Part shown: positions 5,361-64,000 of the stretch, piece after piece
Position numbering within the stretch: the first letter of the stretch is position 1
How the letters are laid out: every line of letters begins with the position of its first letter
Origin: Squalus acanthias
Lineage: Eukaryota
Assembly: GCA_030390025.1 (NCBI GenBank)
Contig: CM059432.1
Coordinates: 32,428,001 to 32,492,000 of the forward strand
Direction of reading: 5' to 3'
Length of the DNA: 64,000 bases
Notes under the pieces: generated by a model
Told to the model about the DNA's origin: nothing
What the model saw: the letters and a program-made list of their open reading frames with translations, nothing else
The model's database searches: none
Program-made: the position numbers and the translations under genes

Positions 5361-5646
5361 TAGTTGGCACTGGTGGCTCTTGATTTGATTGACAACTCTT
5401 TAGGATATTTATGCAAACAGACCAGGCCTCTCCTCCTCTTTGCCCCTTAGCCCTTCATCATTCAGGACTGAGTCTTCTTCTGTCTCCCTGTTTAGAACTG
5501 ATAGAACTGTGGTGAAGGTAACTGTACAATAGTGTGAGCGTATATGGTTATAAATTGTACTTGCCTGTAATGTGCTGTAACTCTAATATTTTTGGTTGTA
5601 CAGAGTGAGCCCTGTTCTGTTGGTAGGAGGCAAAATAGAATTATTG

Positions 5647-5825
5647 GGGTCATTTTAACTTTTGGTTTTAGTGTAAAATGGGTGAAATTGGTTGGGCCGC
5701 TCACTATACACCATTCCTGATTTTCCTTGATTTCATGATGGAAAGGAAAATCGGGGATGGTGTATAATGGGCGGCTAATTCGATATTGCTTGTTTTACAC
5801 CAATGCACAAAGATCAAATTAGCCC
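5647..5825. mobile_element. Short palindromic MITE
   Basis: Degenerate termini ggggtcattttaac...aaattagccc with inverted gtgtaaaa/ttttacac. Same family as 27695-27877. Confidence 0.6.
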
Positions 5826-7332
5826 ATTATGTTGTGTGTTTCATTATCCATTGCTTTCTGTAATAATGTCAGAAAGTATTTATTTATATAGAGAGTGATC
5901 AACAACTCAAATGGATAGCTAGGATGGGTAGTTCAGGCCAGGTCACTGAACTCATTTAAAACACAGCTGGATGCTGTAATGGGAAGATAGTACGCTGGTA
6001 TTCTAGAAGAATAGGATCAACTGGATTGAACTGATACTGTGTTACATTTCTTTTCTCTTACATTCCACATGATTGGAAGAAATGAGTAAGGAGCTCTGGT
6101 CTGTGAGGTAGAACATTCAGCGAGATGAAGCCAGGACCTTCACTACACTAGATGAAGAGCCTATTGCAGGACACAATCAGGGTTGAAAAGAGTAGGAGAA
6201 AAGCAAGATAAATCAATACGTTGTTGGTTAGGTAACACAAAACTTGAGTTTTAAAAGCCTGTAGATTACTGGACGACTGAGGGAGATAAGGAGTTCCATA
6301 GTTTAGATGTTGTGTCAAAGGCCATGGTAATACAGCTATCTGGAGACTTGTCCCTCTCTTACAAAGTGCAAAAAAGAATGAGTGCTTAAATTATAGATAA
6401 TATAATCCTTTAATCTGAGAGATGAATTACCCATTAGCAAGATTGTTCCTTATCCAGCCTTCATGTATGATGATGTCACCAACATGTCTGTAATACTCAT
6501 TCCCATCAACCCAATCTGGGTTGTGTTTACCAAGAGCCACACGGTAGAATGCTCCATCATCACTGGGGAAAGAATTAGGGAGAAGCATTATGACCTCTGA
6601 GAAACTGATGTCCCCATAACAAATTCATCCCGCATTCATCAAAAATTGGTTTGAGAAAGAAGAAAGCAAAACATGGATGCCTGGACCATAGCAGACAACT
6701 TTATTCCCCTCTCATCTTACATAAGCATCATCAAGTTAACAATAGTCAGCACGTGGGCACTTGTTGGTTAATGAGGTGGGCCAGTCTGAACTGGGTACAT
6801 ATAATACATTTCTTTGCTATCTAGTAAATTACCTGAACCTAAATTTTCTTGATGCATTTTTCTCTTATATGGCTGTACAGGAAAACAATCAAAAAAATAC
6901 ATATACAATGATGACTTAAGTCATGATACATTCTACCTGTATGACAGCTTACAGGATCATACTCTTGTGTATTGAGTCAAGTTATTTATACAATGAGAAC
7001 AACTATAAGCAATAGGAAAGACTGTTTTACATGGTCGAGTCTGGTCCATTCTGTCTGGTTTTATCTGAGGTTGATTAGTTTGATCCAGCCAGACCTTGGC
7101 TAACTTGTTCCAGTTGGACCGACCTGGTATAGCTTGCTCTAATTATGCCTATCCTTCATCTGATCTATGCTGGTCTGGTCTGTCCTGATTTGGTTATCTG
7201 GTATGTCGTGGTTTGGTCTGTTGTGATCTGGTTTGACCTGCTGTTGCTGTACTGATCTACAGTACTTACAAGTCCACACAATGTGCAGCTGTCATCATCC
7301 ATCAAGGAGCAATCAAAGTTCCACCACAGGTA

Positions 7333-7805
7333 GGATTCCTGGGATGGGGGGATTGTTCTATGAGGAGAGATTGAGTAGACTAGGCCTATATTCTCTGGCA
7401 TTTAGAAGAATGAGAGGTGATCTCATTGAAACATACAAAATTCTTACAGGGATTGACAGGGTAGATGCAGGGAGGATGTTTCACCTGGCTGGAGAGTCTA
7501 GAACCAGGGGTCACAGTCTCAGAATAAGGGGTTGGCCATTTAGGACTGAGATGAGGAGAAATGTCTTCACTCAGAGGGTGGAGAATCTTTGGAATTCTCT
7601 ACCCCAGAGGGCTGTGGAGGCTCAGTCGTTGAGTATATTCAAGACAGAGATCGATAGATTTTTGGATATTAAGGGAATCAAGGGATATGGGGATAGAGCA
7701 GGCAAGTGGAGTTGAGGTAGAAGATCAGCCATGATCTTATTGAATGGCGGAGCAGGCTCGAGGGCCGAATGGCCTACTCCTGCTCCTATTTCTTATGTTC
7801 TGATG
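7333..7805 (+). mobile_element. CR1 LINE 3' end
   Basis: YEERLSRLGLYSL..RRMRGDLIETYKI..RTRGH..WNSLP, followed by the CR1 3'UTR. Confidence 0.92.
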
Positions 7806-7897
7806 TATTGCCCCAGCCTCCTGCATTAGAGTAAGTATACTGCAAAGCAATCTGTGGAAATAACAATAAAAGAACCAAGTCACTCAGCTTCTATTCA

Positions 7898-8252
7898 CCA
7901 GGACTTCCCAAGTGCTTCACTGCCAACGAATAATTTTTGAAGCGTAGTCACAATTATAATGTAAGAAAATGCAGCAGCCAATTTGCACACAGCAAAGTCA
8001 AAAGATCCCATGGCACTATTTTGAAGAAGAGCAGGGGAGTTCTCCCCGGTGTCCTGGCCAATATTTATCCCTTAACCAACATCACTAAAACAGATTATCT
8101 GGTCATCATCACATTGCTGTTTGTGGGACCTTGCTGTGCGCAAATTGGCTGCTGCGTTTCCCTATGTTACAACAGTGACTACACTTCAAAAAGTACGTCA
8201 TTGGCTATAAAACGTCCTAACGTCATGAAAAGTGCAATTTAAATGTAAATTC
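7898..8252. mobile_element. DeuSINE fragments joined in inverted orientation
   Basis: A minus-strand tail piece (7898-7997) abuts a plus-strand Deu-domain and tail piece (7998-8252). Confidence 0.75.
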
Positions 8253-8350
8253 TGTAAATACAGGCTGCTAGACAATTTGGACGTGGCAAGGAAAAGAGGT
8301 TACTTGTGTCGAATGAATATAATGCAAGTAAAAAAAATCTTTGACACACT

Positions 8351-8847
8351 GGCGTAGAAATTTGTCGGCGCCCAATTTTGGGGTGAAGGTGGGCTGCCTG
8401 CCTCGCCAACAGTGGCCCTCAAATAAGTGTGGATGGGGGTGGGGGTGATCACGGGTCAGCAGATGCCCTCAAGAGGGCTATGGAACCGGGAGGAGCGTTC
8501 CTGCTCCTTCTGGCTCCACAAGAACGTTTTTTAAATTAATTATGTTAATAAAAACTCACCTTTCATTGGTGGCTGCTGCTTAGGCTGTAGCAGCCACTGA
8601 AGAATCCTTTGTGGGTCAGGTCCAATTCCTGACCTGCTTATTGCAGACCAATTTCAGCACAGGGGCTTACAACAAACGTTAGACCCCTCATTTACATATG
8701 TCAGGGACCTAACGCCTGTTTTAGGCGGCTGTCAAGGATGCTTGAAAAATGGTCCAACCAAATTTTGGATCGAATATTGTTCAGGCAGCCTTGGGGTGCA
8801 GGACATTGGTCCTCGAAATTAGATCTCATTGCACCCAATTTCTACCC
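8351..8847. mobile_element. Harbinger-type MITE
   Basis: Termini ggcgtagaaattt ... aatttctaccc. Confidence 0.65.
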
Positions 8848-8968
8848 AAATTTTTAAAAGCATTAGTTGATCTCCCAAGGCATTACTCAAAGACAAATGT
8901 TAAAGTAAAATATTTTTGAATTGAGTTGACATCTCTGAATAAACATGGCCAGATTATCCAAGGACCCA

Positions 8969-10570
8969 GGGTGTGACCCAGGGTCAGCCTAACAACTGTC
9001 ATTGGGAAAATGCTGGAATCCATTATTAAGGAAGTAATAGCAGGACGTTTAGAAAATCATAATACAATCAAGGTAGTTAACAGGCAGTTTTTTGGATAAT
9101 CCCTATTTTAAAAGGTGAAATGTGGGCTTCCCGACAGGTGGCAACCACGCCAAGTTATCGGGGCGGACCGTGGGTCTGCAGGGGTTGGAGGGGTCGATAT
9201 GTCCGGTGGGCAGGTGAGTGATGGGTGCATGTGTGCAGAGGTAAGTGTGTAAGGTAAGTGCTAAGTGTGGGAAAAAGTTTTACTTACCTTAACTTCCTCC
9301 TGCAGGTGTCAGCCCTTCAGTTCTCGGGAGTCAGAAATCTCACCAGCACAGAAAGCAGAAAAGCCGTGGTCCTGTCAAAAACTGCAGCCTTCTGTTTTCT
9401 GTGGTGGAATGATTTCTAACTCAGCCTGAGAGGAAGGACTCAAGTTAGAAATCATATTGTCAGTGTTTGACAGCTTCACAGAGCTGTCAAACGTTAATAT
9501 TTCATCTATCAAAAGCTCTTGACAGATGAAATGTCAATCTGTGACGTCACCTGTTGCCGGGTGGTCCTTAATTGGCCTGCTGAGCCCACTGGGCGGGCTC
9601 AACAAGGTCAATCAAGGGAAAATACAGTGGGTTGGCCACATCTCGATGGAGGCGGGTTTACAAGCCAAAATGTGGGATTCACGACACCAACCCGACCTGA
9701 GTATCAAAATCCAGCCCAAAGAGTCTGCAACGGGATATAGATAGGTTAAGTGAGTAGGCAAAAATTTGGCAGATGGAGTATAATGTGGGAAAATGTGAGG
9801 TTATCCACTTTGGTAGGAAGAATAAAAAAGCAAATTATTATTTAAATGGAGAGAGACTACAGAATGCTGCGGTACAGAGGGATCTGGATGTCCTCGTACA
9901 TGAAACACAAAAAGTTAGCATGCAGGTACAGCAAGTAATTAGAAAGGCAAATTGAATGCTGGCCCTTATTGCAAGGGAGATGGAGTATAAAAGTAGGGAA
10001 GTCTTGCTACAACTGTACAGGGCATTGGTGAGACCACACCTGGAGTACTGCATGCAGTTTTGGTCTCCTTATTTAAGGAGTAATATACTTGCATTGGAGG
10101 CAGTTCAGAGAAGGTTTACTAGGTTAATTCCTGAGATGAAGAGGTTGTCTTTTATGAAGAAAGGTTGAGCAGGTTGGGCCTATATTCATTGGAGTTTAGA
10201 AGAATGAGAGGTGATCTTATTGAAACATATAAGATTCTGAGGGGGCTTGACAGGGTAGATGCAGGGAGGATGTTTCCCCTCGTGGGGGAATCTAGAACTA
10301 GGGGGCATAGTTTCAGAATAAGGGGTCGCCCATTTAAAACGGAGGGTCGTGAATCTTTGGAATTCTCTCCCCCAGAGAGCTGTGGAGGCGGAGTCATTGA
10401 ATATATTCAAGGCGGAGATAGACAGATATTTGAGCTACAGGGGAGTCAATGGTTATGGGGAGCGGGCGGGAAAGTGAAGTTGATGCCAAGATCAGATCAG
10501 CCATGATCTTATTGAATGGCGGAGCAGGCTCGAGGGGCCAAATGGCTCCTTTTTCTTATGTTCTTATGTG
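8969..10570 (+). mobile_element. CR1 LINE RT 3' half, interrupted by a TIR element
   Basis: ORFs 9773, 9956 and 10165 give KCEVIHFG, LVRPHLEYC and RRMRGDLIE. Ends in a (ttcttatg)n tail. Confidence 0.9.
9071..9717 (-). mobile_element. Truncated non-autonomous TIR transposon, near-identical inverted copy of 46718-47570
   Basis: Reverse complement of ~46718-47365. Ends aaaatccagccc. Confidence 0.85.
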
Positions 10571-11739
10571 ACCAGTCCCAAACTTCAACTCAGTTAAATT
10601 TCAGTTAGACTGTGATGTTCTTAAAATGTTAAGTAGTTTACTTAAGTTAAAATTTCAGTTTCAGTTAAAATGATTTAAAATTAATGAAAGTTGCTTAAAC
10701 TTTGAGTTGGTGGGGAATTTGCAATAGCTGCCTTCTGTATTTATTGCAGAATGCAATCACAGCTCGCAAGAGGATGCTTTGCCCCAATTGATCCACTTCT
10801 GATGGAGGTGTCAGACAGCTTCAATCGGCTGTTCGCACTGTTAACAATTACGAGAGTGCAGCCCCGCCACCTTCAGTCATCCCCCCCATGGCCTCTCGAA
10901 CTCCTGCAAGCCCATCTTGCCACCTTGTTGAGCCCCACGTCTGTAAAGAACTTTTTTAAATTTTTTAATTGGTGACACCAACGTGCCCACTATATTTACT
11001 TTATTCCATTAAGTATCTTATATGCGTGGTCATCTCTGATATGTCTCCTTCCAAGGCTGAAGATCATAGCTTATTTATTCTTCATTGCTCATCCTACCGA
11101 CACCAGAGATCATAGAATGGCACAGCACAGAAGGAGGCCATTCAGCCCATCGTGCCTGTGCTGGCTCTTTGAAAAACCTATTAGATCAGCCTTGTTGCTC
11201 TCCTGCAATGTGTCTGGGACATATGCATCCCTTGACCTCGATTTTAACTCCCCCCACTTGGCAGAAACCAGGTGGGGGGGGGGGGGAGGAGGCAGTTAAA
11301 AAGAAGCCGGGGACGTGCCTTTCCCACCCCGATCTGACTAACTGACTTAAATGGAAAGGAAAATCAGACAGGCGGCCAATCCAATATTGCCCATTTTACA
11401 CTGTCATCCAAAGTTTAAATAACCACCAGTATGATAACGATGAGCAAGAATTGAGACTGCATCACACACACACTCACCCGTTTACCTACCTGCCAAGGCC
11501 AGCTGTGATGAACTGCCTCCTCTCCACCTATAACCCTTTCATGTAGAGTTTTGTCATGTTGGGCTGGGGCTGCAGAAATTGCTCCTTGTTTGGAAAATAC
11601 AATTAATTAGAAAACAGAGTTAATCATTTATTGTTCTAGTCATTCCATTAATTGAGTCAGATCGAGTTGATTTGAATTTGTAAAAGAGAGTGGTTTATTG
11701 GCTGCAAAGAAAATCATTTGCTGAAGTTTCTCTGCTTAT

Positions 11740-17575: not shown

Positions 17576-18603
17576 AATGAAAATAAAATTCAGAAGAGAT
17601 GTAAAACGGGCTTCTGATTCTCTATCACCTGTTTTACACTGTCACACAAAGTCAAAATTACTCCCGTAGAGTAAATTGGGTGGAAAGCCACCAGATTTTG
17701 TTTATATGGATTTTGGGTTCTACAACTCTCATCGCATTTCCTTTATTAATATATGCTGCAATTTCCTGACAAAAATAAATTAGTCAAGCACAATGTCCCC
17801 TTTATTCTTGAGGAGCCCTAGCCTTTCTAAGTGTTCACTAATTTCTTCCAATATAATAGACTTTGGAAGCTTACCTACAACTAAAGAAAGACTCATTTGC
17901 TTGTATTTTTCTTTATCTTTGAACAGGAGTTACATACTCAATAGATTTTTTAAATTATTTATGTTATAAACTAGGCAACTAAATATTTACCTGACCGTTC
18001 CTGCGATGGCTCGGTGGGTAAATGGTGTATTACCAAAGCATACAGATCAGGAAAGTCGCAAGTTCAGTTGCTTGTTTCTGCTACAATAGCAGGTCTTAGC
18101 GTGGGCAGTGTCGGGGACATTGGGGGAAAAATTTGTGTGTTTTGCGCCACACATTAGCATCACGAGATGGCGCTAAAACGCCCTTCAAAGCTCTACCGCC
18201 ACCTGATTCCGGTTCCAGCGCTGCACGCCATATAGTCTTGCTGGTAGTGCTGCTGCTAAACTCAATCACCGGGGACCTCGCCGTCACGGAGATCATGACG
18301 TCAGTGAGTGTGCAACGCTCACTTGACGCCCGATCTCCCAACTTCATTATTGCCATTGAACCGACCGGCTGGAGAAAACAACAACAGCTTGAGGTGGCGT
18401 GTAGTAGCAGGAACCCTGCTCCAGCGATGTCATTTAAAGGGATCATCATCAATCACTCGCACCTGACAGGGTTTTGAAGTTTGAGTGGCTGTGTGCTACT
18501 TCCTGCTACTGCAAAAGTTTTCTTTAGTCATTTCAAGGTTCTTTGGTACCAGGGATCATAATTATTTCTGAAAAGCTTCAACTTACAACACTTGCTAAAA
18601 GTC

Positions 18604-19762
18604 ATGGGGGCTGTAGTGGCAGTGGACCTCTCCCTCCAGGATCTATGGTGGAGGGAGCAGAGGCAGCGAGAAAGACGGGAACATGTGTGCAGAGGGAGGA
18701 GGGGGGCCATCAAGGCTCTCAACAGGAGGCCTTATGCTCCTAGGGTGTTCCGACATCACTTCTCCTTCCTTCAATTAAGCGAGGAGCAGTGTATTAAGAG
18801 GCTTCACTTCCCCAAGGAGGTGGTCACAGAACTCTGCCACCTCCTGAAACCAGACCGCCAGCCTCAGACCAGGGCGACCACGGCTCTCCCAGTGGCAGTC
18901 AAGGTCACCGTCGCCCTCAATTTCTTCGCAAGCGGATCCTTCCAGTCTGCAGCAGGAGACATAGCTAACATCTCACAGTTCGCCATCTATCGACTCACTG
19001 AGGCTGTCTACAGCAGGAGAAGGGACGACATTAGCTTCCCGATCACCAGAGAGAAGCAGGACAAGCGTGCTTGTGGCTTTGCCAGGATAGCGGGATTCCC
19101 GATGGTGCAGGGCACTATCAAATACACCCACGTGGCTTTTCAGGCACCGTATAATAATCCTGAGATCTTCCGTAACTGCAAAGGCTACCATTCACTTAAT
19201 GTGCAGTTGCTGTGCGACCACATACAGCAAATCCTCAACATCAATGCCCTCTATCTTGGCAGCAGCCACGATGCCTTCATCCTGCGCCAGACCGGTGTGC
19301 CAGCACTCATTCAGCCACCACATCAAGCTCGCTGCTCAGAGACAAGGGCTATCTGCTCTCCACCTGGCTCATGACTCCCCTCCGCAACCCCAACACTCGT
19401 GCCCAGCACTCATATAATGAGAGCCATGCTGCCACCAGGAACATCATCGAGCAGCCCATCGGCCTACTGAAGCAACGGTTCCGTTGCCTTGACCGCTCTG
19501 GAGGAGCTGTCCAGTACTCACCAGAGCAGGCATCCCATTTCGTGGTGGTCTGCTACATGCTCCACAACTTGGGTATCCTGAGGGCACAGCCCTTGCCAGC
19601 AGGGACCACCTCAGGAGGACGACGAGGCAGAAGAGGATGAGGAGGCGGAGGACAAGAAAGAAGAGGACGAGGAACAGGAGGGAGGGCGGAGACAGCAAAA
19701 CAATCGGCTTTCCGGATGGGCTGTCTGTGACCGACTCATCAGACTGCGATTCGAATGGATGA
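18604..19762 (+). pseudogene. HARBI1-like DDE transposase, frameshifted
   Basis: LNFFASGSFQ, GFPMVQGTIKYTHV (first catalytic Asp lost), [46 protein letters not shown]. Confidence 0.9.
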
Positions 19763-23180: not shown

Positions 23181-23363
23181 CTGACTCAGATGATTTGGGT
23201 TTCAAGGCCCACATCAGGACATGACTGCATAAACAGCAGAGTACTGCATTGTCAGAGATTGTGACCTTTGGATGAGATGTTAAACTGAGGTTCCCTCTGT
23301 CTGATCAGATAATAATGAGAAGTCACACAACACCAGGTTATAGTCCAACAGATTTATTTAAAA

Positions 23364-23401
23364 TTACAAGCTTTCGGAGCTGTCGCCCCTTCGTCAGGTA
23401 A
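23364..23401 (-). ncRNA. Minimal type I hammerhead ribozyme (Penelope pLTR)
   Basis: UUAC-CUGACGA-A-GGGGC-GACA-GCUCC-GAAAGCUU-GUAA on the minus strand. Confidence 0.85.
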
Positions 23402-23626
23402 AGGTGCAATGAAGGAATCTACAATATTACACAGTATATAAACACAGAAACTGCAGAGATACAATCTTTCAGGGAAGCATTACTTCAAAGACACACCAGA
23501 GCACAGCCAAGACAATGAGATGGATCACAGGGGGTCCAACGTGTCAAATCCTGCTGTCTGCAGTTGAGCTTTTAACTTTTTTTTTGTGTTTTTTTAAAAA
23601 CTGGAAAGACAGACAACGATGTCGAG

Positions 23627-25193
23627 TCACGTTCTGTAGCGTGACATGAACCTGATATCCCTATTGAGGCCGTCCTCATGGGTGCGGAACTTGGCTATCA
23701 GTTTCTGCTCGATGATTTTGCGTTGTCGTGTGTCTCGAAGGCCGCCTTGGAGAACGCTAACCTGCAGATCCGAGGCTGAATGTCCTTGACTGCTGAAGTG
23801 TTCCCTGACTGGGAGGTAACAATCCTGCCTGGCGATTGTTGCGCGGTGTCCGTTCATACGTTGTCTCAGTGTCTGCATGGTCTCGCCGATGTACCATGCT
23901 CTGGGGCATCCTTTCCTGCAACGTATCAGGTAGACAACGTTGGCCGAGTCACATGAGTATGTACCATGTACCTGGTGGGTAGTGTCCTCACGTGTGATGA
24001 CGGTATCTGTGTTGATGATCTGGCATGTCTTGCAGAGGTTGCCGTGGCAGGGTTGTGTGGTGTCGTGGTCGCTGTTCTCCTGACAGCTGGGTAATTTGCT
24101 GCGAACGATGGTACTTTTGAGGTTAGGCGGCTGCTTGAAGGTGAGTAGTGGAGGAGTGGGGATGGCCTTAGCATGGTGTTCGTCGTCATCGATGACATGT
24201 TGAAGGCTGCGAAGAACATGGCGTAGTTCCTCCGCTCCGGGGAAGTACTGGACGACGTAGGGTACTCTGTTGGTTGTGTCCCGTGTTCGCCTTCTGAGGA
24301 GGTCTATGCGGTTTTTCGCTGTGGCCCGTCGGAACTGTTGATCGACGAGTCGAGCATCATATCCCGTTCTTACGAGGGCGTCTTTCAGTGTCCGTAGGTG
24401 TCCATCGCGTTCCTCCTCATCTGAGCAGATCCTGTGTATTGGCAGGGCTTGTCCATAGGGGATGGCTTCTTTAACGTGGTTAGGGTGGAAGCTGGAGAAG
24501 TGGAGCATCGTGAGGTTGTCCGTGGGCTTGCGGTAGAGTGAAGTGCTGAGGCGTCCGTTTTTGATGGAGATTCGTGTGTCCACGAATGAAACCGATTCTG
24601 AGGAGTAGTCCATGGTGAGTTTGATGGTGGGATGGAACCTGTTGATGTTCTCGTGTAGTCCTTTCAGTGATCCTTCGCCGTGGGTCCAAAGGAAGAAAAT
24701 GTCGTCGATGTATCTGGTGTACAGCGTTGGTTGGAGGTCCTGTGCAGCGAAGAAGTCTTGCTCGAACTTGTGCATGAAGATGTTGGCGTATTGGGGTGCG
24801 AATTTGGTCCCCATGGCTGTTCCGTGTGTTTGGGTAAAAAACTGGTTGTCGAAGGTGAAGACATTGTGGTCAAGGATGAAGCGGATGAGTTGTAGGATGG
24901 CGTCTGGAGATTGGCTGTTGTTGGTGTTGAGTACTGAGGCTGTCGCAGCGATGCCGTCATCGTGGGGGATATTGGTGTAGAGTGCCGATACGTCCATCGT
25001 GGCGAGGAGTGTTCCTGGTTCAACTGGTCCATGGGTGCTGAGTTTCTGCAAGAAGTCTGTAGTGTCGCGACAGAAGCTGGGGGTTCCCTGTACGATGGGT
25101 TTCAGGATGCCCTCGACGTACCCAGAGAGGTTCTCACACAGGGTTCCGTTGCCTGATATGATAGGACGTCCGGGTGTGTTGGCTTTGTGTATC
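23627..25193 (-). CDS. Penelope reverse transcriptase plus GIY-YIG endonuclease (5'-truncated, frame open)
   Basis: IHK..PGRPII, MDVSALYTNI, GTAMG, RYIDD, YRKPT, Cys-rich linker PCHGNLCKTC, VVYLIRC..YIGET, GLN. Confidence 0.93.
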
Positions 25194-25865
25194 CTCAGAA
25201 GGCGAACACGGGACACAACCAACAGAGTACCCTACGTCGTCCAGTACTTCCTCGGAGCGGAGAAACTACGCCATGTTCTTCACAGCCTTCAACATGTCAT
25301 CGATGACGACGAACACCTTGCTAAGGCCATCCCCACGCCTCCACTACTCGCTTTCAAGCAGCCGCCTAACCTCAAAAGTACCATCGTTCGCGGCAAATTA
25401 CCCAGCTGTCAGGAGAACAGCGACCACGACACCACACAACCCTGCCACAGCAACCTCTGCAAGACATGCCAGATCATCAACACAGATACCATCATCACAC
25501 GTGAAGACACTACCCACCAGGTACATGGTACATACTCATGTGACTCGGCCAACGTTGTCTACCTGATACGTTGCAGGAAAGGATGCCCCAGAGCATGGTA
25601 CATCGGCGAGACCATGCAGACACTGAGACAACGTATGAATGGACACCGCGCAACAATCGCCAGGCAGGATTGTTACCTCCCAGTCGGGGAACACTTCAGC
25701 AGTCAAGGACATTCAGCCTCGGATCTGCGGGTTAGCGTTCTCCAAGGCGACCTTCGAGACACACGACAACGCAAAATCATCGAGCAGAAACTGATAGCCA
25801 AGTTCCGCACCCATGAGGATGGCCTCAATAGGGATATCGGGTTCATGTCACGCTATAGAACGTGA
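25192..25865 (+). CDS. Penelope C-terminal GIY-YIG fragment (inverted arm)
   Basis: Near-identical to the C-terminus of the minus-strand ORF. Confidence 0.88.
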
Positions 25866-26101
25866 CTCGACATCGTTGTCTGTCTTTCCAGTTTTTAAAA
25901 AAACACAAAAAAAAACAAAAAAAAAAGTTAAAAGCTCAACTGCAGACAGCAGGATTTGACATGTTGGACCCCCTGTGATCCATCTCATTGTCTTGGCTGT
26001 GCTCTGGTGTGTCTTTGAAGTAATGCTTCCCTGAAAGATTGTATCTCTGCAGTTTCTGTGTTTATATACTGTGTAATATTGTAGATTCCTTCATTGCACC
26101 G

Positions 26102-26139
26102 TTACCTGACGAAGGGGCGACAGCTCCGAAAGCTTGTAA
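26102..26139 (+). ncRNA. Minimal type I hammerhead ribozyme
   Basis: ttac ctgacga a ggggc gaca gctcc gaaagctt gtaa. Confidence 0.85.
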
Positions 26140-27190
26140 TTTTAAATAAATCTGTTGGACTATAACCTGGTGTTGTGCGACTTCTCATTTTTGTCCACCC
26201 CAGTCCAACACCGGCATCTCCGCATCATGATCAGATAATGTTAACGATGGGAAGATGGTATAGTTGGAATTCAGGAAGAATGAGAACAAATGGGCCGAAG
26301 GGTCTTGTTCATCCAAACTGATCCTGTGATCTGGTGCTCTCTGTCTCAGCAGGTGGCACCTATGGAAGCCATAATTCACTGTGAGCCCGAAGGACAGAGG
26401 GAGAAATTGGAAAAGAAACAAAACAATTATTTATTGATTAACTCATACTACAGATACATCAGTGTCTGTCTGGCCTTAAACATTACTGAGTGGCCTTCCA
26501 TTATACACAGGTGCCGTTTTTCCCATTGCACAAGGAGAGGGAGATATTGTGAGCGTGACACTGATAAACTGGACTAGTTTCAAATATTAAGTGGAAATGT
26601 ACCAAATTAATAAAGTATTGGGACAAAGTTTGCTACATAGAGAATATCAGAGGCCTGTGAATGAGTTCGTAGCATACTTGAGTTAGTTAGGATATGCCAT
26701 GAAGGACAAAGTGTCTAACCCTGGAGAGGTGGACTGGAGTCCAGTGGCAATGGGTGGATCTTATGTCTATTTTCCCCGATAGCATCTGCTTGTTCGTGAA
26801 TTTATTCTCAGAATGTGGGTGTTGCTGATGAAGCTGACATTTATTGCCCATCTCTAATTGCTCTGAGAAGGTGGTGGTGGATCTTCTTCTTGAACCGTTG
26901 GTAGCGGTTTAATACAACTGAGTGTCTTGCTAGGCCACTTCAGAGGGCAGTTAAAAGTCAATCACTTTAGTGTGTCAAACCACTGGAGTCACATATAGGC
27001 CAGACCAAGTAAGGACAGCAGGTTTCCTTCCCTAAAGGACTTTAGTAAACCAATTGGATTTTTACAATAATCTGACAGCTTCATGGTCACTTTTACTGAT
27101 CATGATGCGGAGATGCCGGTGTTGGACTGGGGTGGACAAAAATAAGAAGTCGCACAACACCAGGTTATAGTCCAACAGATTTATTTAAAG

Positions 27191-27228
27191 TTACAAGCTT
27201 TCGGAGCTGTTGCCCCTTCGTCAGGTAA
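27191..27228 (-). ncRNA. Minimal hammerhead ribozyme
   Basis: Same core as 23364, with stem II loop AACA. Confidence 0.85.
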
Positions 27229-27519
27229 AGGTACAATGAGGGAATCTTCAATATTACACAGTATATAAACACAGAAACTGCAGAGATACCATCTTTCAGG
27301 GAGGCATTACATCAAAGACACACCAGAGTACTGGCAAGACAATGAGATGGGTCACAGGGGGTCCAACGTGGATTTGACACGTTAGACCCCCTGTAACCCA
27401 TCTCATTGTCTTGGCTGTGCTCTGGTGTGTCTTTGATGTAATGCCTCCCTGAAAGATTGTATCTCTGCAGTTTCTGTGTTTATATACTGTGTAATAGTGT
27501 AGATTCCCTCATTGTACCT

Positions 27520-27557
27520 TTACCTGACGAAGGGGCAACAGCTCCGAAAGCTTGTAA
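27520..27557 (+). ncRNA. Minimal hammerhead ribozyme
   Basis: ttac ctgacga a ggggc aaca gctcc gaaagctt gtaa. Confidence 0.85.
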
Positions 27558-27694
27558 CTTTAAATAAATCTGTTGGACTATAACCTGGTGTTGTGCGACT
27601 TCTCACTTTTACTGATACCAGTGTTTTATTTCTAGATTTTTTTTAAACTGAATTCAAATTCTCAAATTGCCACAGTGGGATTTGAACTCACAGT

Positions 27695-27877
27695 GGGGTA
27701 ATTTTGACTTTGGTCGATAGTGTAAAACATGCGCTATCAGCTCGGCCATCATTAAACACCTCTCCTGATTTTCGTTTCCACTGATTTCAATGGACACCAA
27801 AACCAGAAGAGGTGTTTAACAGGCGGCCAAGCCGATATCGCGCATTTTACACTAAAGTCTAAAGTCAAAATTACCCC
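27695..27877. mobile_element. 183-bp palindromic MITE
   Basis: Perfect 17-bp TIR ggggtaattttgacttt / aaagtcaaaattacccc. Confidence 0.85.
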
Positions 27878-29049
27878 TACTTTCTCTGGATTATTAGTCC
27901 AGGCCTCTGGATAGCTAGTCCAGTAACGTAACCACAACACTACAGTATCGGTGTCAGGCACTGACTTCATGGATACCCTAATTTAAGGTATTTGTCCTCT
28001 AAATTTTCTCCCACACTAAAGAAACACTTGGCTTCTGCTCCGTACTTACCCCCAATTCCATGGAAACTCAGTCAAATTTGCACAACAGTGTTCCATTAAG
28101 GTTCAAACCATTGCAACACCATCGTACATAAGTTTATGCTCATTAGTATTAATGTTTTTTTAAGTATCTGTGCTTTAAACTCAGAGAGGAAATGCACCAC
28201 TCAGAACTGAGCCACACAAACCAGAAAGGGATCAGGTCCAATTTCAGGTCTGTGCTAAGTTAAATGATCTCAGCTGGGATAACAGTAGAAGCACGACATT
28301 CAGCCTCAGATTCAGGGGGAAACAAATAGGCCGTGGTTCCTGTTCCTGATCACTGCCTAGTGATCCAGTGATCCTCTGCTAGAAAGTGTGTGTCTGTGGA
28401 CAGTGATTGAGGACCAGACTGGGCTCCCCTCTGATGATTGCCCTGCTACTCAAACACTCAGGGCTTTTGCCCAATGATAGACACTCATCAAAGGTACAGG
28501 AGGATTACCGGCACCTATGTAGGGACACCCCCATCGTGAGTCAGTGACTTCAGGAGAGTAGGGGTGTAAGTTGGAAACAGATGTAAAATTTTAGGGCTGT
28601 TTTAACTTCACTTTGAAATCCAAGGGCAGGATCTGCTAATGGGATCACCCAAGCCAGAAGGAAGAGAAGTAGAGAAAAAGGGAGTGAATTTGGTCTTGGG
28701 CAGTGGCGCAAAGCAGGTGATTGTGTTGACTTCAGTGGAAAAAAAATCAAGCGGGGTGTAAAATGGGCTGCCGATTCGCTATTGCCAATTTTGTGCTATC
28801 GCCCAAGACCAATTTCACCCCAAAAATGCCTACAACTTTTGCCATGACAAATCACTTGCCCTATATACAGCTTTTGCAGGTCAATCTATATACCAAGTGA
28901 TGGGGAGTGAGCCTTAAATTATTATTTTAAGGACAACCCAAGAGGCTGATTCTTACTACTGGCATTGATTTCTGCTCCTGTAGCTGCCTTCTTGCAGTGC
29001 TGCTGATGCCTATTGGATCATCTGTGGCCAGCTTTGTGAACAGTGGTGA

Positions 29050-30062: not shown

Positions 30063-30096
30063 ATGTTCCAGTACCTGCTCTTGACTCTTTGCCTCA
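30063..30096 (+). CDS. Chymotrypsin-like elastase (CELA/CTRC family) exon 1, signal peptide
   Basis: MFQYLLLTLCL, then phase-1 donor GTAAGG. Confidence 0.8.
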
Positions 30097-30351: not shown

Positions 30352-30537
30352 GTAAGGAGTCCTCGTTACCCCTTAGCTCACTGTCTGCACGCTACAGGGC
30401 AGTCGTAACACAGCAACAGGGTCTGCTATTCTCTATATTGTATCATGGATTTGCTATTCCCCATACTACATGCTGGTTGTAAGACCCCAAATGCGAAATT
30501 CAGGTACAAATGGGAAGAGCTTGCACTGAGTTGTATT

Positions 30538-31354
30538 GATGCAGAGATGCTGGTGTTGGACTGGGGTGGACAAAAATGAAAAGTCGCACAACACCAGATT
30601 ATAGTCCAACAGTTTTATTTGAAATTACGAGCTTTCGGAGCGCTGCTCCTTCGTCAGGTACAGTGAGGGAATACAAATCGATTACACAGTATATATAGAC
30701 AGAGAACAATGTGTCTGCAGAGATACAATCCGTCAGGGAGGCATTACATCAAAGACACAGCAGAGTACAGCTAAGACAATGAGGTGGGGTCACAGGGGGT
30801 CCAACGTGTCAAATGCTGCAGTCTGCAGTTAAGCTTTTTACTTTTTTTTTAAAAACTGGAAATCTGTGAACCAGACAACGATGTCGAGTCACGTCCTATA
30901 GCGTGACATGAAACCGAGATCCCGGTTGAGGCCGTCCTCATGGGTGCGGAACTTGGCTATCAGTTTCTGCTCGATGATTTTGCGTTGTCGTGTGTCTCGA
31001 AGGCTGCCTTGGAGAACGCTAACCCGCAGATCCGAGGCTGAATGTCCTTGACTGCTGAAGTGTTCCCCGACTGGGAGGTAACAATCCTGCCTGGCGATTG
31101 TTGCGCGGTGTCCGTTCATACGTTGTCTCAGTGTCTGCATGGTCTCGCCGATGTACCATGCCGCGGTGCATTCTTTCCTGCAACGTATGAGGTAGACAAC
31201 GTTGGCCGAGTCACATGAGTATGTACCATGTACCTGGTGGGTGGTGTCCTCACGTGTGATGACGGTATCTGTGTTGATGATCTGGCATGTCTTGCAGAGG
31301 TTGCCGTGGCAGGGTTGTGTGGTGTCGTGGTCGCTGTTCTCCCGACAGCTGGGT
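30538..31354 (-). mobile_element. Penelope 3' fragment (GIY-YIG, pLTR and tail) in intron 2
   Basis: ORF 30889..31140(-). TSD gttgtattg (30530-30538 / 31353-31361, with junction microhomology). Confidence 0.92.
30625..30661 (-). ncRNA. Minimal hammerhead ribozyme (variant)
   Basis: UAC-CUGACGA-A-GGAGC-AGC-GCUCC-GAAAGCUC-GUA on the minus strand. Confidence 0.85.
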
Positions 31355-45760: not shown

Positions 45761-45833
45761 TGGAGAATGCGGGCATCAATTCTGCTACCTCTCACATGCT
45801 AAGCGAGCACTCTACCATTTGAGCTAATTCCCC
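45761..45833 (-). tRNA. tRNA-Ala(AGC) retro-pseudogene
   Basis: GGGGAATTAGCTCAAATGGTAGAGTGCTCGCTTAGCATGTGAGAGGTAGCAGAATTGATGCCCGCATTCTCCA matches the vertebrate tRNA-Ala-AGC type. T-arm is mutated, no CCA, followed by CTCCCC and T8. Confidence 0.92.
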
Positions 45834-46665: not shown

Positions 46666-47915
46666 AGGGTACGGTAGTCTAGTGGTTATATTACTGGACT
46701 ACTAATGCAGAGAATATGGGCTGGATTTTGAATCTGGGGTCGGGTTGGGGTCGGGAATCACACATTCTGGCTTGTGAACACGCCTCCATCGAGATGTGGC
46801 CAACCCATTGTATTTTCCCTTGATTGACCTTGTTGAGCCCGCCCAGTGGGCTCAGCAGGCCAATTAAGGGCCACCCGGCAACAGATGACGTCACAGACTG
46901 ACATTTCATCTGTCAAGAGCTTTTGACAGATGAAATATTAGCGTTTGACAGCTCTGTGAAGCTGTCAAACACTGACAATATGATTTCTAACTTGAGTCCT
47001 TCCTCTCAGGCTGAGTTAGAAATCATTCCAGCACAGAAAACAGAAGGCTGCAGGTTTTGACAGAACCACGGCTTTCCTGCTTTCTGTGCCGGTGAGATTT
47101 CTAACTCCCGAGAACTGAAGGGCTGACACCTGCAGGAGGAAGTTAAGGTAAGTAAAACTTTTTCCAACACTTAGCACTTACCTTACACACTTACCTCTGC
47201 ACACATGCACCCATCACTCACCTGCCCACCGGACATATCGACCCCTCCAACCCCTGCAGACCCACGGCCCGCCCCGATAACTTGGCGTGGTTGCCACCTG
47301 TCGGGAAGCCCACACTTTTCTTTTTAAAATAGGGATTATGCAAAAAACTGCCTGTTAACTACCTGTTAACAGGCAGTTAATTGTCACTAATCCCTTCCCG
47401 CCTCGGGGAGTCGGGTCTCAGAACAGGTCAGGTACCCGCCGCCAGAGAAACTGGCATGGAGGCGGGTTGGAGTTGGGATGGGGTCGGGACCCCCGAATCT
47501 GCAACTTTAACCCCCCCCCGCCCCCTGCCGCCTCCAAACCCGACTCCACGGGTCATTGAAAATTCAGCCCTATGAGTTCAGATCCCACCATGGCAGTTTG
47601 AGAATTTGAATTCAGTTTTTTAAAAGTCTGGAAATAAAAATCTGGTATCAGTAAAAGTGACTATGAAGCTGCGGGATTGTTGTAAAAACCCAAATGGCTC
47701 ACTAATGTCCTATAGGGAAGGAAACCTACCATGTTCTGACCTAATGTTCTCTGGTCTCACGCCAGTGTGGCTGACTCCTAAGTGGCTTAGCAAGGCACTC
47801 AGTTGTGTCAACCGCTCAAGAAGAAGGCCCACGATCACCTTCCCATGGTAATGAGCGGTGGGTAATAAATGCCAGCCATGCCAGCAACGCTTTCATCCCG
47901 AGAATGAATAGAAAG
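46666..47915 (+). mobile_element. tRNA-headed SINE (family of 26790-27950), split by a TIR element
   Basis: A-box tagtctagtgg, B-box gagttcagatcc after the insert, and a LINE-like tail. Confidence 0.75.
46718..47570 (+). mobile_element. Complete non-autonomous Harbinger-type TIR element (853 bp)
   Basis: TIRs gggctggatttt / aaaattcagccc with TAT TSD. Confidence 0.9.
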
Positions 47916-54643: not shown

Positions 54644-55502
54644 CTGATGAAAGGTCACCGACCTGAAACGTTAACTCTGTTTCTCTCTCCACAGATGCTG
54701 CCTGACCTGCTGAACATTTTGGGCGAAAAATTGAGTCGCGCCCCCTTTGGGGTGCTAATTTCGCCGGGGCGCTACTTTTACCGCCCCGGAAAAATTAGCA
54801 CCCCCGCGACGGAAATTGAGTGGTAGCGCCCCAAGAGGGAAGCGGGGTGCTACTGGAAGCGCCCCGCCTCCCTCTTGGGGCTCTGCGAGGGAATATCGCG
54901 GCGCTACGTGCCGCGGTATTGCAGGCCTTCCTCCACTTCTTAAAGGGGAGGGGCCTTGTGCAGCACGACCCGAGGCCCAGCTGGCCCCCGGGGATCGGGA
55001 GTGCCGGCAAAAGAGCCCGGCACTCAAGAGAAGTGCCGGGCTCATGGAGCGCAGCTGGCACTCCGCGGGGGGGGGGTGGCGGGGGGGTGGGGGGTCAGGA
55101 GGCCGGGGACGGGAGCAGAGGCAGGTGCTGGCAGGCGGCCAGCAACAAAAATGGCCGCCCAGCTCCTCGCCTTTAAATAACGCCTCCCCGGCTGCAGGTA
55201 GGCCCCCCTGACCCCGTCAGACATAGCATCCGGTGGTAAGTCAGGGGGCGCTACCGAAGATGGCGGCCGGGGCGCGAGTGGGGCGCTGCGCACGGCGATG
55301 ATGTAGGCGCAGCGCCGCGGGGCGCTACCGGTTACCGCTGCTGCTAACCTCCCACTGCATTTCGCGGGAGGCGTTGGCGGCACCACGCCCAGGCGCTAGT
55401 TGCTTTGCGCCCGTTAGCGCCCTCTTAGGAGGCACAAAGCAACCAAATTTTTCCCCCTTTCTGTTTTACTTCAGATTTCCAGCATTTGCAGTATTTTGCT
55501 TC
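54644..55502 (+). mobile_element. pLTR of a second Penelope family, starting at the hammerhead core and split by a MITE
   Basis: ctgatga a aggtc acc gacct gaaacgtt aactctg... matches the reverse of 63459-63585. Confidence 0.85.
54721..55457. mobile_element. GC-rich Harbinger MITE
   Basis: TIRs gggcgaaaaatt / aatttttccccc with TTT flanks. Related to 16735-17428. Confidence 0.85.
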
Positions 55503-62359: not shown

Positions 62360-62856
62360 ACTGGCCCCCATTTGGTTGAAAAAGTTTCTACTTTAGGTAG
62401 AATTCACTTACGAGTCAACACAGTGGGCAGCGGTCATGATCTAATTAGGAGTAACAATCGTGCCACCTGTGACAGAATGCACCAGGCTTTGACTGGAATC
62501 TGTATTGCAGAGATATCTGAGGAAGAACATGGGCAGCATCAGATTGGGCTAAACACCGTGGTATGGAGTCAGCCGAGTCAGCTTCAATAAGAATTTTTTA
62601 GGGACAGTTTTTATTATTTTTCTCCTCTTCTGCCTTCCAAAATAGGAATGGGAGAAAGCACAGGATGAGAAAAGACTCTGCTGTCCATCCCAAAACCTAA
62701 TACCCCTCATTCATCCACTCCCTTAAATTTCTATCCAATTCTCCCTTAGATTTTTTCCACACTATTTTTCCCTGCACTCTTAGGCAGTCCATTTTACACA
62801 TTTACCATGCCGTACATAGCATAATTAATTTAAAAGTTTCTGTGTGCCTTCTTTCA

Positions 62857-63454: not shown

Positions 63455-63458
63455 CGAT

Positions 63459-64000
63459 AGCAAAATACTGCAGATGCTGGAAATCCGAAATAACAACAGA
63501 AAACGCTGGAAAAACTCAGCAGGCGAGGCAGCATCCGTGGAGAGAGAAACAGAGTTAACGTTTCAGGTCGATGACCTTTCGTCAGAACTGGAAAGAGCCG
63601 GAAATCAAATAGATTTAAGGCCAGGATAAAGCTGGGAAAAGGGGGAGGGGATAAAGGAACAAAAGGGGAGATTAAGAGACATTAAGAGATATGCAAGGCA
63701 AGAGGTGGTGTTAATGTGACAGGTTAAGGCTGAAAGAAGTGTGAAATCCACTGGCAGAATGAAGGACAGCTGCCAGCTTCTAGGAGGAAAAAAAAGTGGG
63801 CGGGGGGGGCAAATAAAAGGGTGGATGAAAAAATAAAATATAAATGTGATTGGAGCTGAGGTTATGATCTAAAATTGTTGAACTCGATATTGAGTCCAGA
63901 GGGCTGTAAAGTGCCTAAACGAAAGATGAGGTGCTGTTCCTCGAGCTTACGCTGCGCTTCCGTGGAACAGTGTAACAGGCCGAGGACGGTGAGGTCAGAG
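63459..64000 (-). mobile_element. Penelope-like element, second family (GIY-YIG C-terminus and pLTR; runs off the window)
   Basis: Minus frame 63999-63862 reads SDLTVLGLLHCSTEAQRKLEEQHLIFRLGTLQPSGLNIEFNNFRS*. Confidence 0.88.
63553..63589 (-). ncRNA. Minimal hammerhead ribozyme (second family)
   Basis: AGUU-CUGACGA-A-AGGUC-AUC-GACCU-GAAACGUU-AACU. Confidence 0.85.

Follow-up and report, generated by a model that had tools for sequence, protein, structure and literature searches.

Results

Genomic setting of the insertion

The window considered here is the whole stretch of 64,000 nucleotides (64 kb) of Squalus acanthias DNA that was analysed. Between two divergent elastase-like protease genes it contains an insert of 502-505 bp, organised as a nearly perfect palindrome and located within a SINE-like repeat. 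The coordinates of the insert, of its parts and of the elements used for comparison are reported in Table 1.

Table 1. Features of the palindromic insertion, of its target site and of the related PLE copies; positions refer to the window.
Feature	Position	Strand	Remarks
Host repeat, SINE-like, interrupted by the insertion	26800..27693	+	alignment to paralogue
Left TSD copy	27087..27100	+	within the SINE-like repeat; 14 bp at most, 11 at least
PLE tail	27101..27142 (27145 at most)	-	left arm only; end 116 nt past hammerhead stem II start
Left arm, 5'-truncated pLTR	27143..27370	-	element sense on minus strand
Minimal type-I hammerhead motif	27191..27228	-	helix I 4 bp, helix II 5 bp, helix III not closable
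Head-to-head junction	27370..27377	+	1-nt microhomology at 27370 plus 7-nt loop
Right arm, tail-less pLTR	27370..27605	+	8 nt longer at the centre than the left arm
Minimal type-I hammerhead motif, same sequence as on the left	27520..27557	+	descriptor match
Right TSD copy	27603..27616	+	exact 14-mer
Comparison copy, same family and anatomy, larger (2.9 kb)	23314..26229	both	alignment, ORF, TSD
Comparison copy, plain 5'-truncated, related subfamily	30537..31354	-	tailed, without inverted arm; TSD 9 bp at most

The locus appears to be intergenic. The nearest probable start codon, that of the plus-strand protease gene, appears to be about 2.45 kb downstream of the palindrome; the probable exon 1 of this gene (30063-30096) has a GT donor and matches homologue P0148 at 6 of its 9 first residues, although a non-coding exon may lie further upstream. 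For the minus-strand gene, one exon contains a stop, and exon 1 was looked for in the window and not found. A candidate signal-peptide exon at 7167, which would make the locus intronic, was considered and rejected, because it falls inside the protease gene of the minus strand and the sequence at 30063 is a better candidate for exon 1. Elastase/chymotrypsin-like protease sequences form a cluster, at 30063-60902 on the plus strand and at 6430-11585 and 62411-62519 on the minus strand; the plus-strand gene looks intact where matched, and the two minus-strand ones each carry a stop codon in the exon of the catalytic His motif. Elsewhere in the window, ORFs at 18562-19640 and 986-1582 resemble a Harbinger-type transposase and a Myb/SANT-like partner, and a tRNA-like sequence at 45761-45833(-), scoring 39.3 bits and thus above the Rfam gathering score, may be a gene, a pseudogene or the head of a SINE.

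Anatomy of the palindrome

The complementary arms (27138-27370 and 27378-27610) are 233 nt long each, are 96% complementary and are separated by 7 nt. This confirms an earlier reading of the locus, based on the letters only (the sequence-only reading), which had described arms of about 230 bp, a spacer of a few nucleotides and no ORF; no ORF of at least 120 aa overlaps the palindrome. The arms are mismatched at 10 positions, one of them inside the TSD overlap, and the true differences between them are 9; the longest perfect run is 103 bp. Folded as RNA, the palindrome strand reaches -422 kcal/mol (z -40), a value as good being found in none of 100 shuffles.

The insert measures 502-505 bp, compared with the 505 bp given by the same reading, in which the 42-45-nt tail present at one end only, and with it the asymmetry of the insert, had not been mentioned. 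The PLE tail is attached to the left arm, the right one being devoid of it, and neither arm contains the other, since the left has the tail in addition and the right has the loop. The loop (27371-27377) is part of the right arm, and the G at 27370, which ends the left arm, also starts the right one, producing a microhomology of 1 nt at the head-to-head centre. This difference between the arms is the most informative feature of the palindrome. Sequences matching the tail are found at 26190-26229 and 30537-30575.

MITEs have terminal inverted repeats reaching both ends, derive from DNA transposons and are flanked by TSDs of fixed length. The palindrome was not assigned to this class, given the unpaired tail at one end, the retroelement pLTR sequence and the variable TSD lengths. 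The proposal that it is a MITE-looking, but retrotransposed, derivative of PLE pLTRs is supported by the variable-length TSD, the tail and the empty site described below. Short non-coding elements of MITE-like appearance, made up of inverted repeat for 78-85% of their length, are present at 27695-27877, 28681-28821 and 5645-5826, those near 27.7 kb and 5.7 kb being related to each other.

Hammerhead motifs

Hammerhead motifs were searched by using a self-written descriptor of the minimal type-I fold (CUGANGA, a paired helix II, GAAA, UH and a helix I of at least 3 bp). Matches at 27224(-) and 27524(+), with a helix II of 5 bp and a helix I of 4 bp, coincide with the two hammerheads already proposed for the arms. 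In all, the descriptor matched six times in the window, five times in the pLTRs of the PLE family and once in a second family; in 200 dinucleotide shuffles the mean was 0.015, three of them showing one match. A search of the whole window against Rfam, with E values up to 1, returned no match to a hammerhead family, and the stability of the isolated 48-mer does not exceed that of its shuffles (z -0.71); the hammerhead call thus rests on core sequence, pairing and context. Three weak matches to Rfam miRNA models, below the gathering score and two of them at the hairpin centre, were discarded as generic stems.

Each strand of the palindrome includes one sense hammerhead; from standard core numbering, the right one is predicted to cut between 27553 and 27554. 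The sequence-only reading had proposed that, upon transcription, the ribozyme would be sequestered by its own antisense copy, and folding predictions agree: the pair probability of helix II is 0.00 in the full hairpin, on either strand, and 0.07 and 0.21 in the single arms. A full-hairpin transcript from either strand is therefore predicted to bury the sense hammerhead, blocking the predicted self-cleavage. A single minimal hammerhead has been described as not cleaving in vitro (PMC4209133).

The second hammerhead-bearing repeat family is represented at 63456-63600(-) and 54644-54713(+). The latter copy is a 70-nt stub, which begins at the catalytic core, lacks helix I and directly follows a protease exon.

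The PLE family within the window

Three insertions of the PLE family to which the palindrome belongs are found in the 64-kb window, with TSDs of 14, 12 and 9 bp at most. The larger neighbour has pLTRs downstream of its ORF (at 23627-25231 and 25192-25865), with which the palindrome arms share 94-95% identity. This neighbour (23314-26229) resembles the palindrome in having a tail-less inverted arm, a tailed arm and a TSD, but its centre is different. Its minus-strand arm, without tail, is about 1.9 kb long and includes the 3' part, still open, of an RT/GIY-YIG ORF; the plus-strand arm, of about 1.04 kb, ends in a pLTR followed by a tail of 38-40 nt, and the junction falls near 25192. The palindromic portions of the two arms extend for about 1 kb (966 matches, 21 mismatches and 13 gap columns), with a spacer of about 890 nt, and the whole is flanked by a 12-bp TSD (23302-23313 and 26228-26239).

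The neighbour ORF matches RVT_1 with an E value of 4e-9. The GIY-YIG profile misses it, but matches its full-length homologue P0027 (44% identical), and a VVY..YIG core with two cysteines can be read in the translation. Among named proteins, the closest are from sharks, with identities of up to 91%. A C-x4-C-x2-C linker precedes the GIY-YIG core. A CX2-5CxxC linker marks Neptune and Nematis and is described as absent from Penelope/Poseidon (PMC8557442). Judged by this linker motif, the family would be an endonuclease-positive (EN+) PLE of the Neptune/Nematis type; an assignment to the Poseidon clade was rejected on account of the same motif.

Target site and host repeat

An exact 14-mer is present on both sides of the insert. 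Its first 3 nt also match the element, and the TSD is thus 11-14 bp long, in agreement with the length previously assigned to it. Elsewhere in the window the 14-mer occurs once, at 47647-47660(-), and both flanks of the palindrome align to the one uninterrupted SINE-like copy that surrounds it, at about 47570-47750(-). The empty site that had been indicated there was accordingly found, the TSD sequence being single in that SINE; it is, however, a paralogue and not an orthologous allele.

In all three insertions of the window (sites compared: 23302-23313/26228-26239, 27087-27100 and 30530-30538), the target strand next to the tail admits a reading with AT as its last letters, and the last five letters are common to two of them. 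With three cases, a preference of the endonuclease for such ends is possible.

In two of the sequencing runs described below (X1 and X2), one contig each joins the same SINE position (27100/27145) directly to the tail-less end of a pLTR. These joins are weak, the shorter side spanning 21-23 nt; possibly, another copy was inserted independently at this site of the SINE, with its ends arranged the other way round.

Junctions and family abundance

The 18-mer and the 31-mer spanning the palindrome junction occur once each in 64 kb, and both inverted insertions of the window, the only two that were compared, have a junction of their own.

Scans with exact family patterns gave no matches in viral, genome and metagenome contigs. 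A 19-nt pattern of the tail was found at 8 metagenome and 7 genome loci, and all 15 were set aside as chance matches, the similarity being limited to 19-26 nt of the pLTR. Of 24 sequencing runs listed, none contained half of the query words and none is on record as RNA. Contigs from four runs, compared with positions 26760-27410 (the left half of the palindrome), indicate a very abundant family. In run X6, which is RNA only by guess, coverage does not extend past 27375, and the depth of the DNA runs over 27376-27410 is accounted for by ordinary pLTR copies.

Over 27200-27243, just upstream of the hammerhead, the summed contig depth drops 5- to 11-fold in all four runs. Many copies of the family may begin at the 5' edge of the ribozyme, or subfamilies may diverge there.

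Probable common origin of the arms

At seven positions the two palindrome arms share a letter where both pLTRs of the neighbour carry another one; the latter two differ from each other at 3 of 228 sites. One of the shared letters (27190/27558) accounts for at most 0.55, 0.53, 3.5 and 0.1% of the summed contig depth in the four runs, and its rarity makes it unlikely that two random members of the family were the sources of the arms. Either the two arms go back to one source, or they became homogenised afterwards. The shared letters could stem from gene conversion between the arms, and a fold-back route also predicts them, but the 9 true differences argue against a recent homogenisation.

Five letters are private to the left arm. 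Each makes up 0-4% of the depth in each of the four runs, the one at 27290 being absent from all four, as expected for mutations that followed insertion. Since they are this rare, a role of the palindrome as master copy of a large subfamily is discounted, whereas it could be a daughter copy; contig depth does not measure copy number, and rare variants are lost from contigs.

End points of the arms

The outer ends of the two inverted insertions fall at similar distances from the start of stem II. Tailed ends are found at +116 in the palindrome and at +114 to +116 in the neighbour, tail-less ends at +71 to +74 (27602-27605) and at +76, respectively. The tail-less arm is the deeper of the two in both insertions, extending into the element beyond the tailed one by 8 nt in the palindrome and by about 890 nt in the neighbour, a trend which, with two cases only, is a lead and not a rule.

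The last 8 nt of the bottom-strand primer could pair with the RNA at the inner site, forming seven Watson-Crick pairs and one G-U. This pairing may be due to chance, because homology was found unnecessary in work carried out in vitro.

Origin of the palindrome

The most likely explanation of the palindrome is an ordinary back-to-back PLE insertion in its most reduced form, built once at landing, in preference to a novel mobile family or to two functional ribozymes. The palindrome has the features of EN+ PLE insertions: a pLTR linked to an RT/GIY-YIG ORF, an inverted 5'-truncated copy at the 5' end, a one-sided tail and a short TSD of variable length. We infer that it probably arose in one EN+ PLE insertion, by joining, at the moment of integration, two primed cDNAs copied from one source.

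Both target strands would have primed reverse transcription in this single event. The GIY-YIG endonuclease would have produced a staggered cut, with nicks 11-14 bp apart; at the top-strand end, synthesis of a cDNA would have begun where the tail ends, and at the bottom-strand end a second cDNA would have begun about 42-45 nt deeper in the pLTR RNA. The two cDNAs, made on RNA that would come from one source element, would have ended after about 230-270 nt and would have been joined head to head at the 1-nt microhomology. The arms have the orientation of antisense cDNA running inward from each TSD copy, as priming at both nicks would produce. Both outer ends coincide with the two apparent RT start points of the family, which speaks for formation at integration rather than for a palindromic RNA having been copied. 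A single RNA primed by both target ends, with the inner site used before the tail site and the latter followed by strand displacement, would also account for the common source of the arms and for the longer tail-less arm seen in the two cases; the alternatives considered are two RNAs on a protein dimer and self-priming. The outcome would be a dead stump, devoid of an ORF, with one sense hammerhead per strand unable to close helix III alone, and showing no sign of movement since insertion.

A second possibility, rather unlikely on the whole, is that a one-off insertion acquired its second arm by self-priming, a cDNA having folded back and copied itself. This route would explain the near-perfect symmetry around a 7-nt loop and the seven diagnostic letters common to the arms, and the deeper tail-less arm of both inverted insertions looks as if it had been made first. 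It is also the published model for head-to-head PLE palindromes, with an antisense template (PMC3846280). A strand that copies itself, however, cannot gain sequence, and here each arm has an extra part, the tail in one case and the loop in the other. An added step is thus required, either a short second priming for the tail or a later flip of the loop, and the pairing available at the junction is 1 nt only.

It is improbable that the palindrome derives from a longer inverted insertion, similar to the neighbour, whose centre was removed by a subsequent deletion between the arms. The neighbour shows a possible precursor, the arms have aged enough to accumulate their 9 true differences, and microhomology-mediated deletions of Penelope copies have been reported (PMC3846280). 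Such a history requires a second event; short truncated copies are common in any case, as judged from the drop in contig depth upstream of the hammerhead, a rough measure. Central deletions usually relieve a palindrome, whereas a near-perfect one was kept here.

Even more doubtful is a non-autonomous palindromic unit, transcribed and retrotransposed as a whole by the PLE protein acting in trans, which would mimic a MITE, with a fixed centre and ribozymes silenced by the antisense copy. The insert is non-coding and flanked by a TSD; in rotifers, pLTR sequences alone mobilised unrelated DNA in trans (PMC3846280), and non-autonomous PLE derivatives exist (PMC8557442; 10.64898/2026.07.22.740005). 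The junction, however, is found once in 64 kb and differs from that of the neighbour. If a palindromic RNA were copied from one end, the opposite end of the insert would be truncated or fused to flanking sequence, while the one observed lies within 2-5 nt of the tail-less end of the neighbour. The insert also lacks the RNA of about 55 nt beyond the RT start that the Anolis protein needs (PMC11167929), a 230-bp duplex would tie up its sense arm, and the published non-LTR retrozymes are tandem repeats (10.64898/2026.07.22.740005). The palindrome, then, probably does not move as a unit, and the mobile non-autonomous family suggested by the sequence-only reading is not supported, the junctions differing in the two cases out of two, that of the palindrome occurring once in 64 kb and its outer ends lying at the two apparent priming points of the family.

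An assembly artefact, due to a fold-back read or a mis-join, is very improbable: among the pieces listed for the four runs no contig bridges the centre, but a fold-back artefact would give identical arms and no TSD, whereas these arms differ at 9 positions and have different ends, the TSD restores the paralogous SINE, and a contig of run X2 matches the flank at 26760-26892 without any difference.

Discussion

The insertion of two primed cDNAs, proposed here for the palindrome, can be compared with several known systems. According to Craig et al. 2021 (PMC8557442), PLEs are typically accompanied at their 5' end by a 5'-truncated copy in inverse orientation and have a tail of 30-40 bp on one side, and head-to-head PLE palindromes flanked by TSDs, with the self-priming model, were described by Arkhipova et al. 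in 2013 (PMC3846280). EN+ PLE insertions, as described in these two papers, share with the palindrome the head-to-head pLTRs, the tail at one end, the strong 5' truncation and the palindromic junction. Their TSDs, of 8-10 bp, are similar in size to the 11-14 bp found here, and the tail of the palindrome is slightly longer than the published ones. The palindrome differs in having no ORF body and in that both arms are truncated within the pLTR.

In Schistosoma mansoni, remnants of PLEs contain minimal hammerheads in pairs, one on each strand, with a spacing of about 100-700 bp (Cervera and De la Pena 2014, PMC4209133). The cores of the palindrome are 300 bp apart, within this range, and the two systems have in common the minimal type-I fold, the extra base before helix II and the palindromic helix III region. 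Here the host is a vertebrate, and helix II is 5 bp long, compared with 7-8 in the Schistosoma pairs.

The only PLE reconstituted in vitro is PAc, a Poseidon element of Anolis carolinensis (Frangieh et al. 2024, PMC11167929). Cleavage and extension concern both strands of the target in that system, and RT starts at two adjacent sites, which bound the tail. The start is mostly 111-118 nt into the ORF, which begins at stem II, and the RNA needed by the protein, which extends about 55 nt beyond the RT start, corresponds to the first 172 nt of the ORF; inverted products were not reconstituted (PMC11167929). PAc and the palindrome are alike in the pLTR hammerhead, the two end points bounding the tail, the distance of about 115 nt between the tailed end and stem II, and the AT-rich target. 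The family described here belongs to another clade, as judged by its CX2-5CxxC linker, and has no start codon in the hammerhead core. Given that the Anolis element is of the Poseidon clade, the match in distance may be a coincidence.

Non-LTR retrozymes (Li et al. 2026, 10.64898/2026.07.22.740005) are, like the palindrome, non-coding, related to pLTRs and provided with type-I hammerheads. They are head-to-tail tandems with at least two ribozymes on the same strand, in contrast to the head-to-head layout, with one hammerhead per strand, found here, and the palindrome was for these reasons not classified among them.

In transformed D. melanogaster, siRNAs matched the inverted-repeat regions of Penelope (PMC3681739). 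Those elements, like the palindrome, have long inverted repeats deriving from rearranged copies; the palindrome differs in that its locus seems intergenic. By analogy, the palindrome is a plausible source of small RNAs, as had been suggested earlier: such hairpins could feed small-RNA silencing where they are inserted in transcribed DNA, as published for Drosophila.

A literature search, limited for the most part to open-access papers without their supplements, found no ORF-free PLE palindrome in sharks and no palindrome moving as a unit; the supplements of PMC4209133 and PMC3846280 may cover small palindromes in more detail.

Taken by itself, the locus is one fossil among very many copies, with an architecture described between 2013 and 2021. 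As a class, stump palindromes would be clean records of how the inverted ends of PLEs are formed, a step called "undefined" in PMC8557442 and left unvalidated in PMC11167929. The single source of both arms, together with the longer tail-less arm observed in two insertions out of two, provides a rule that can be tested on them.
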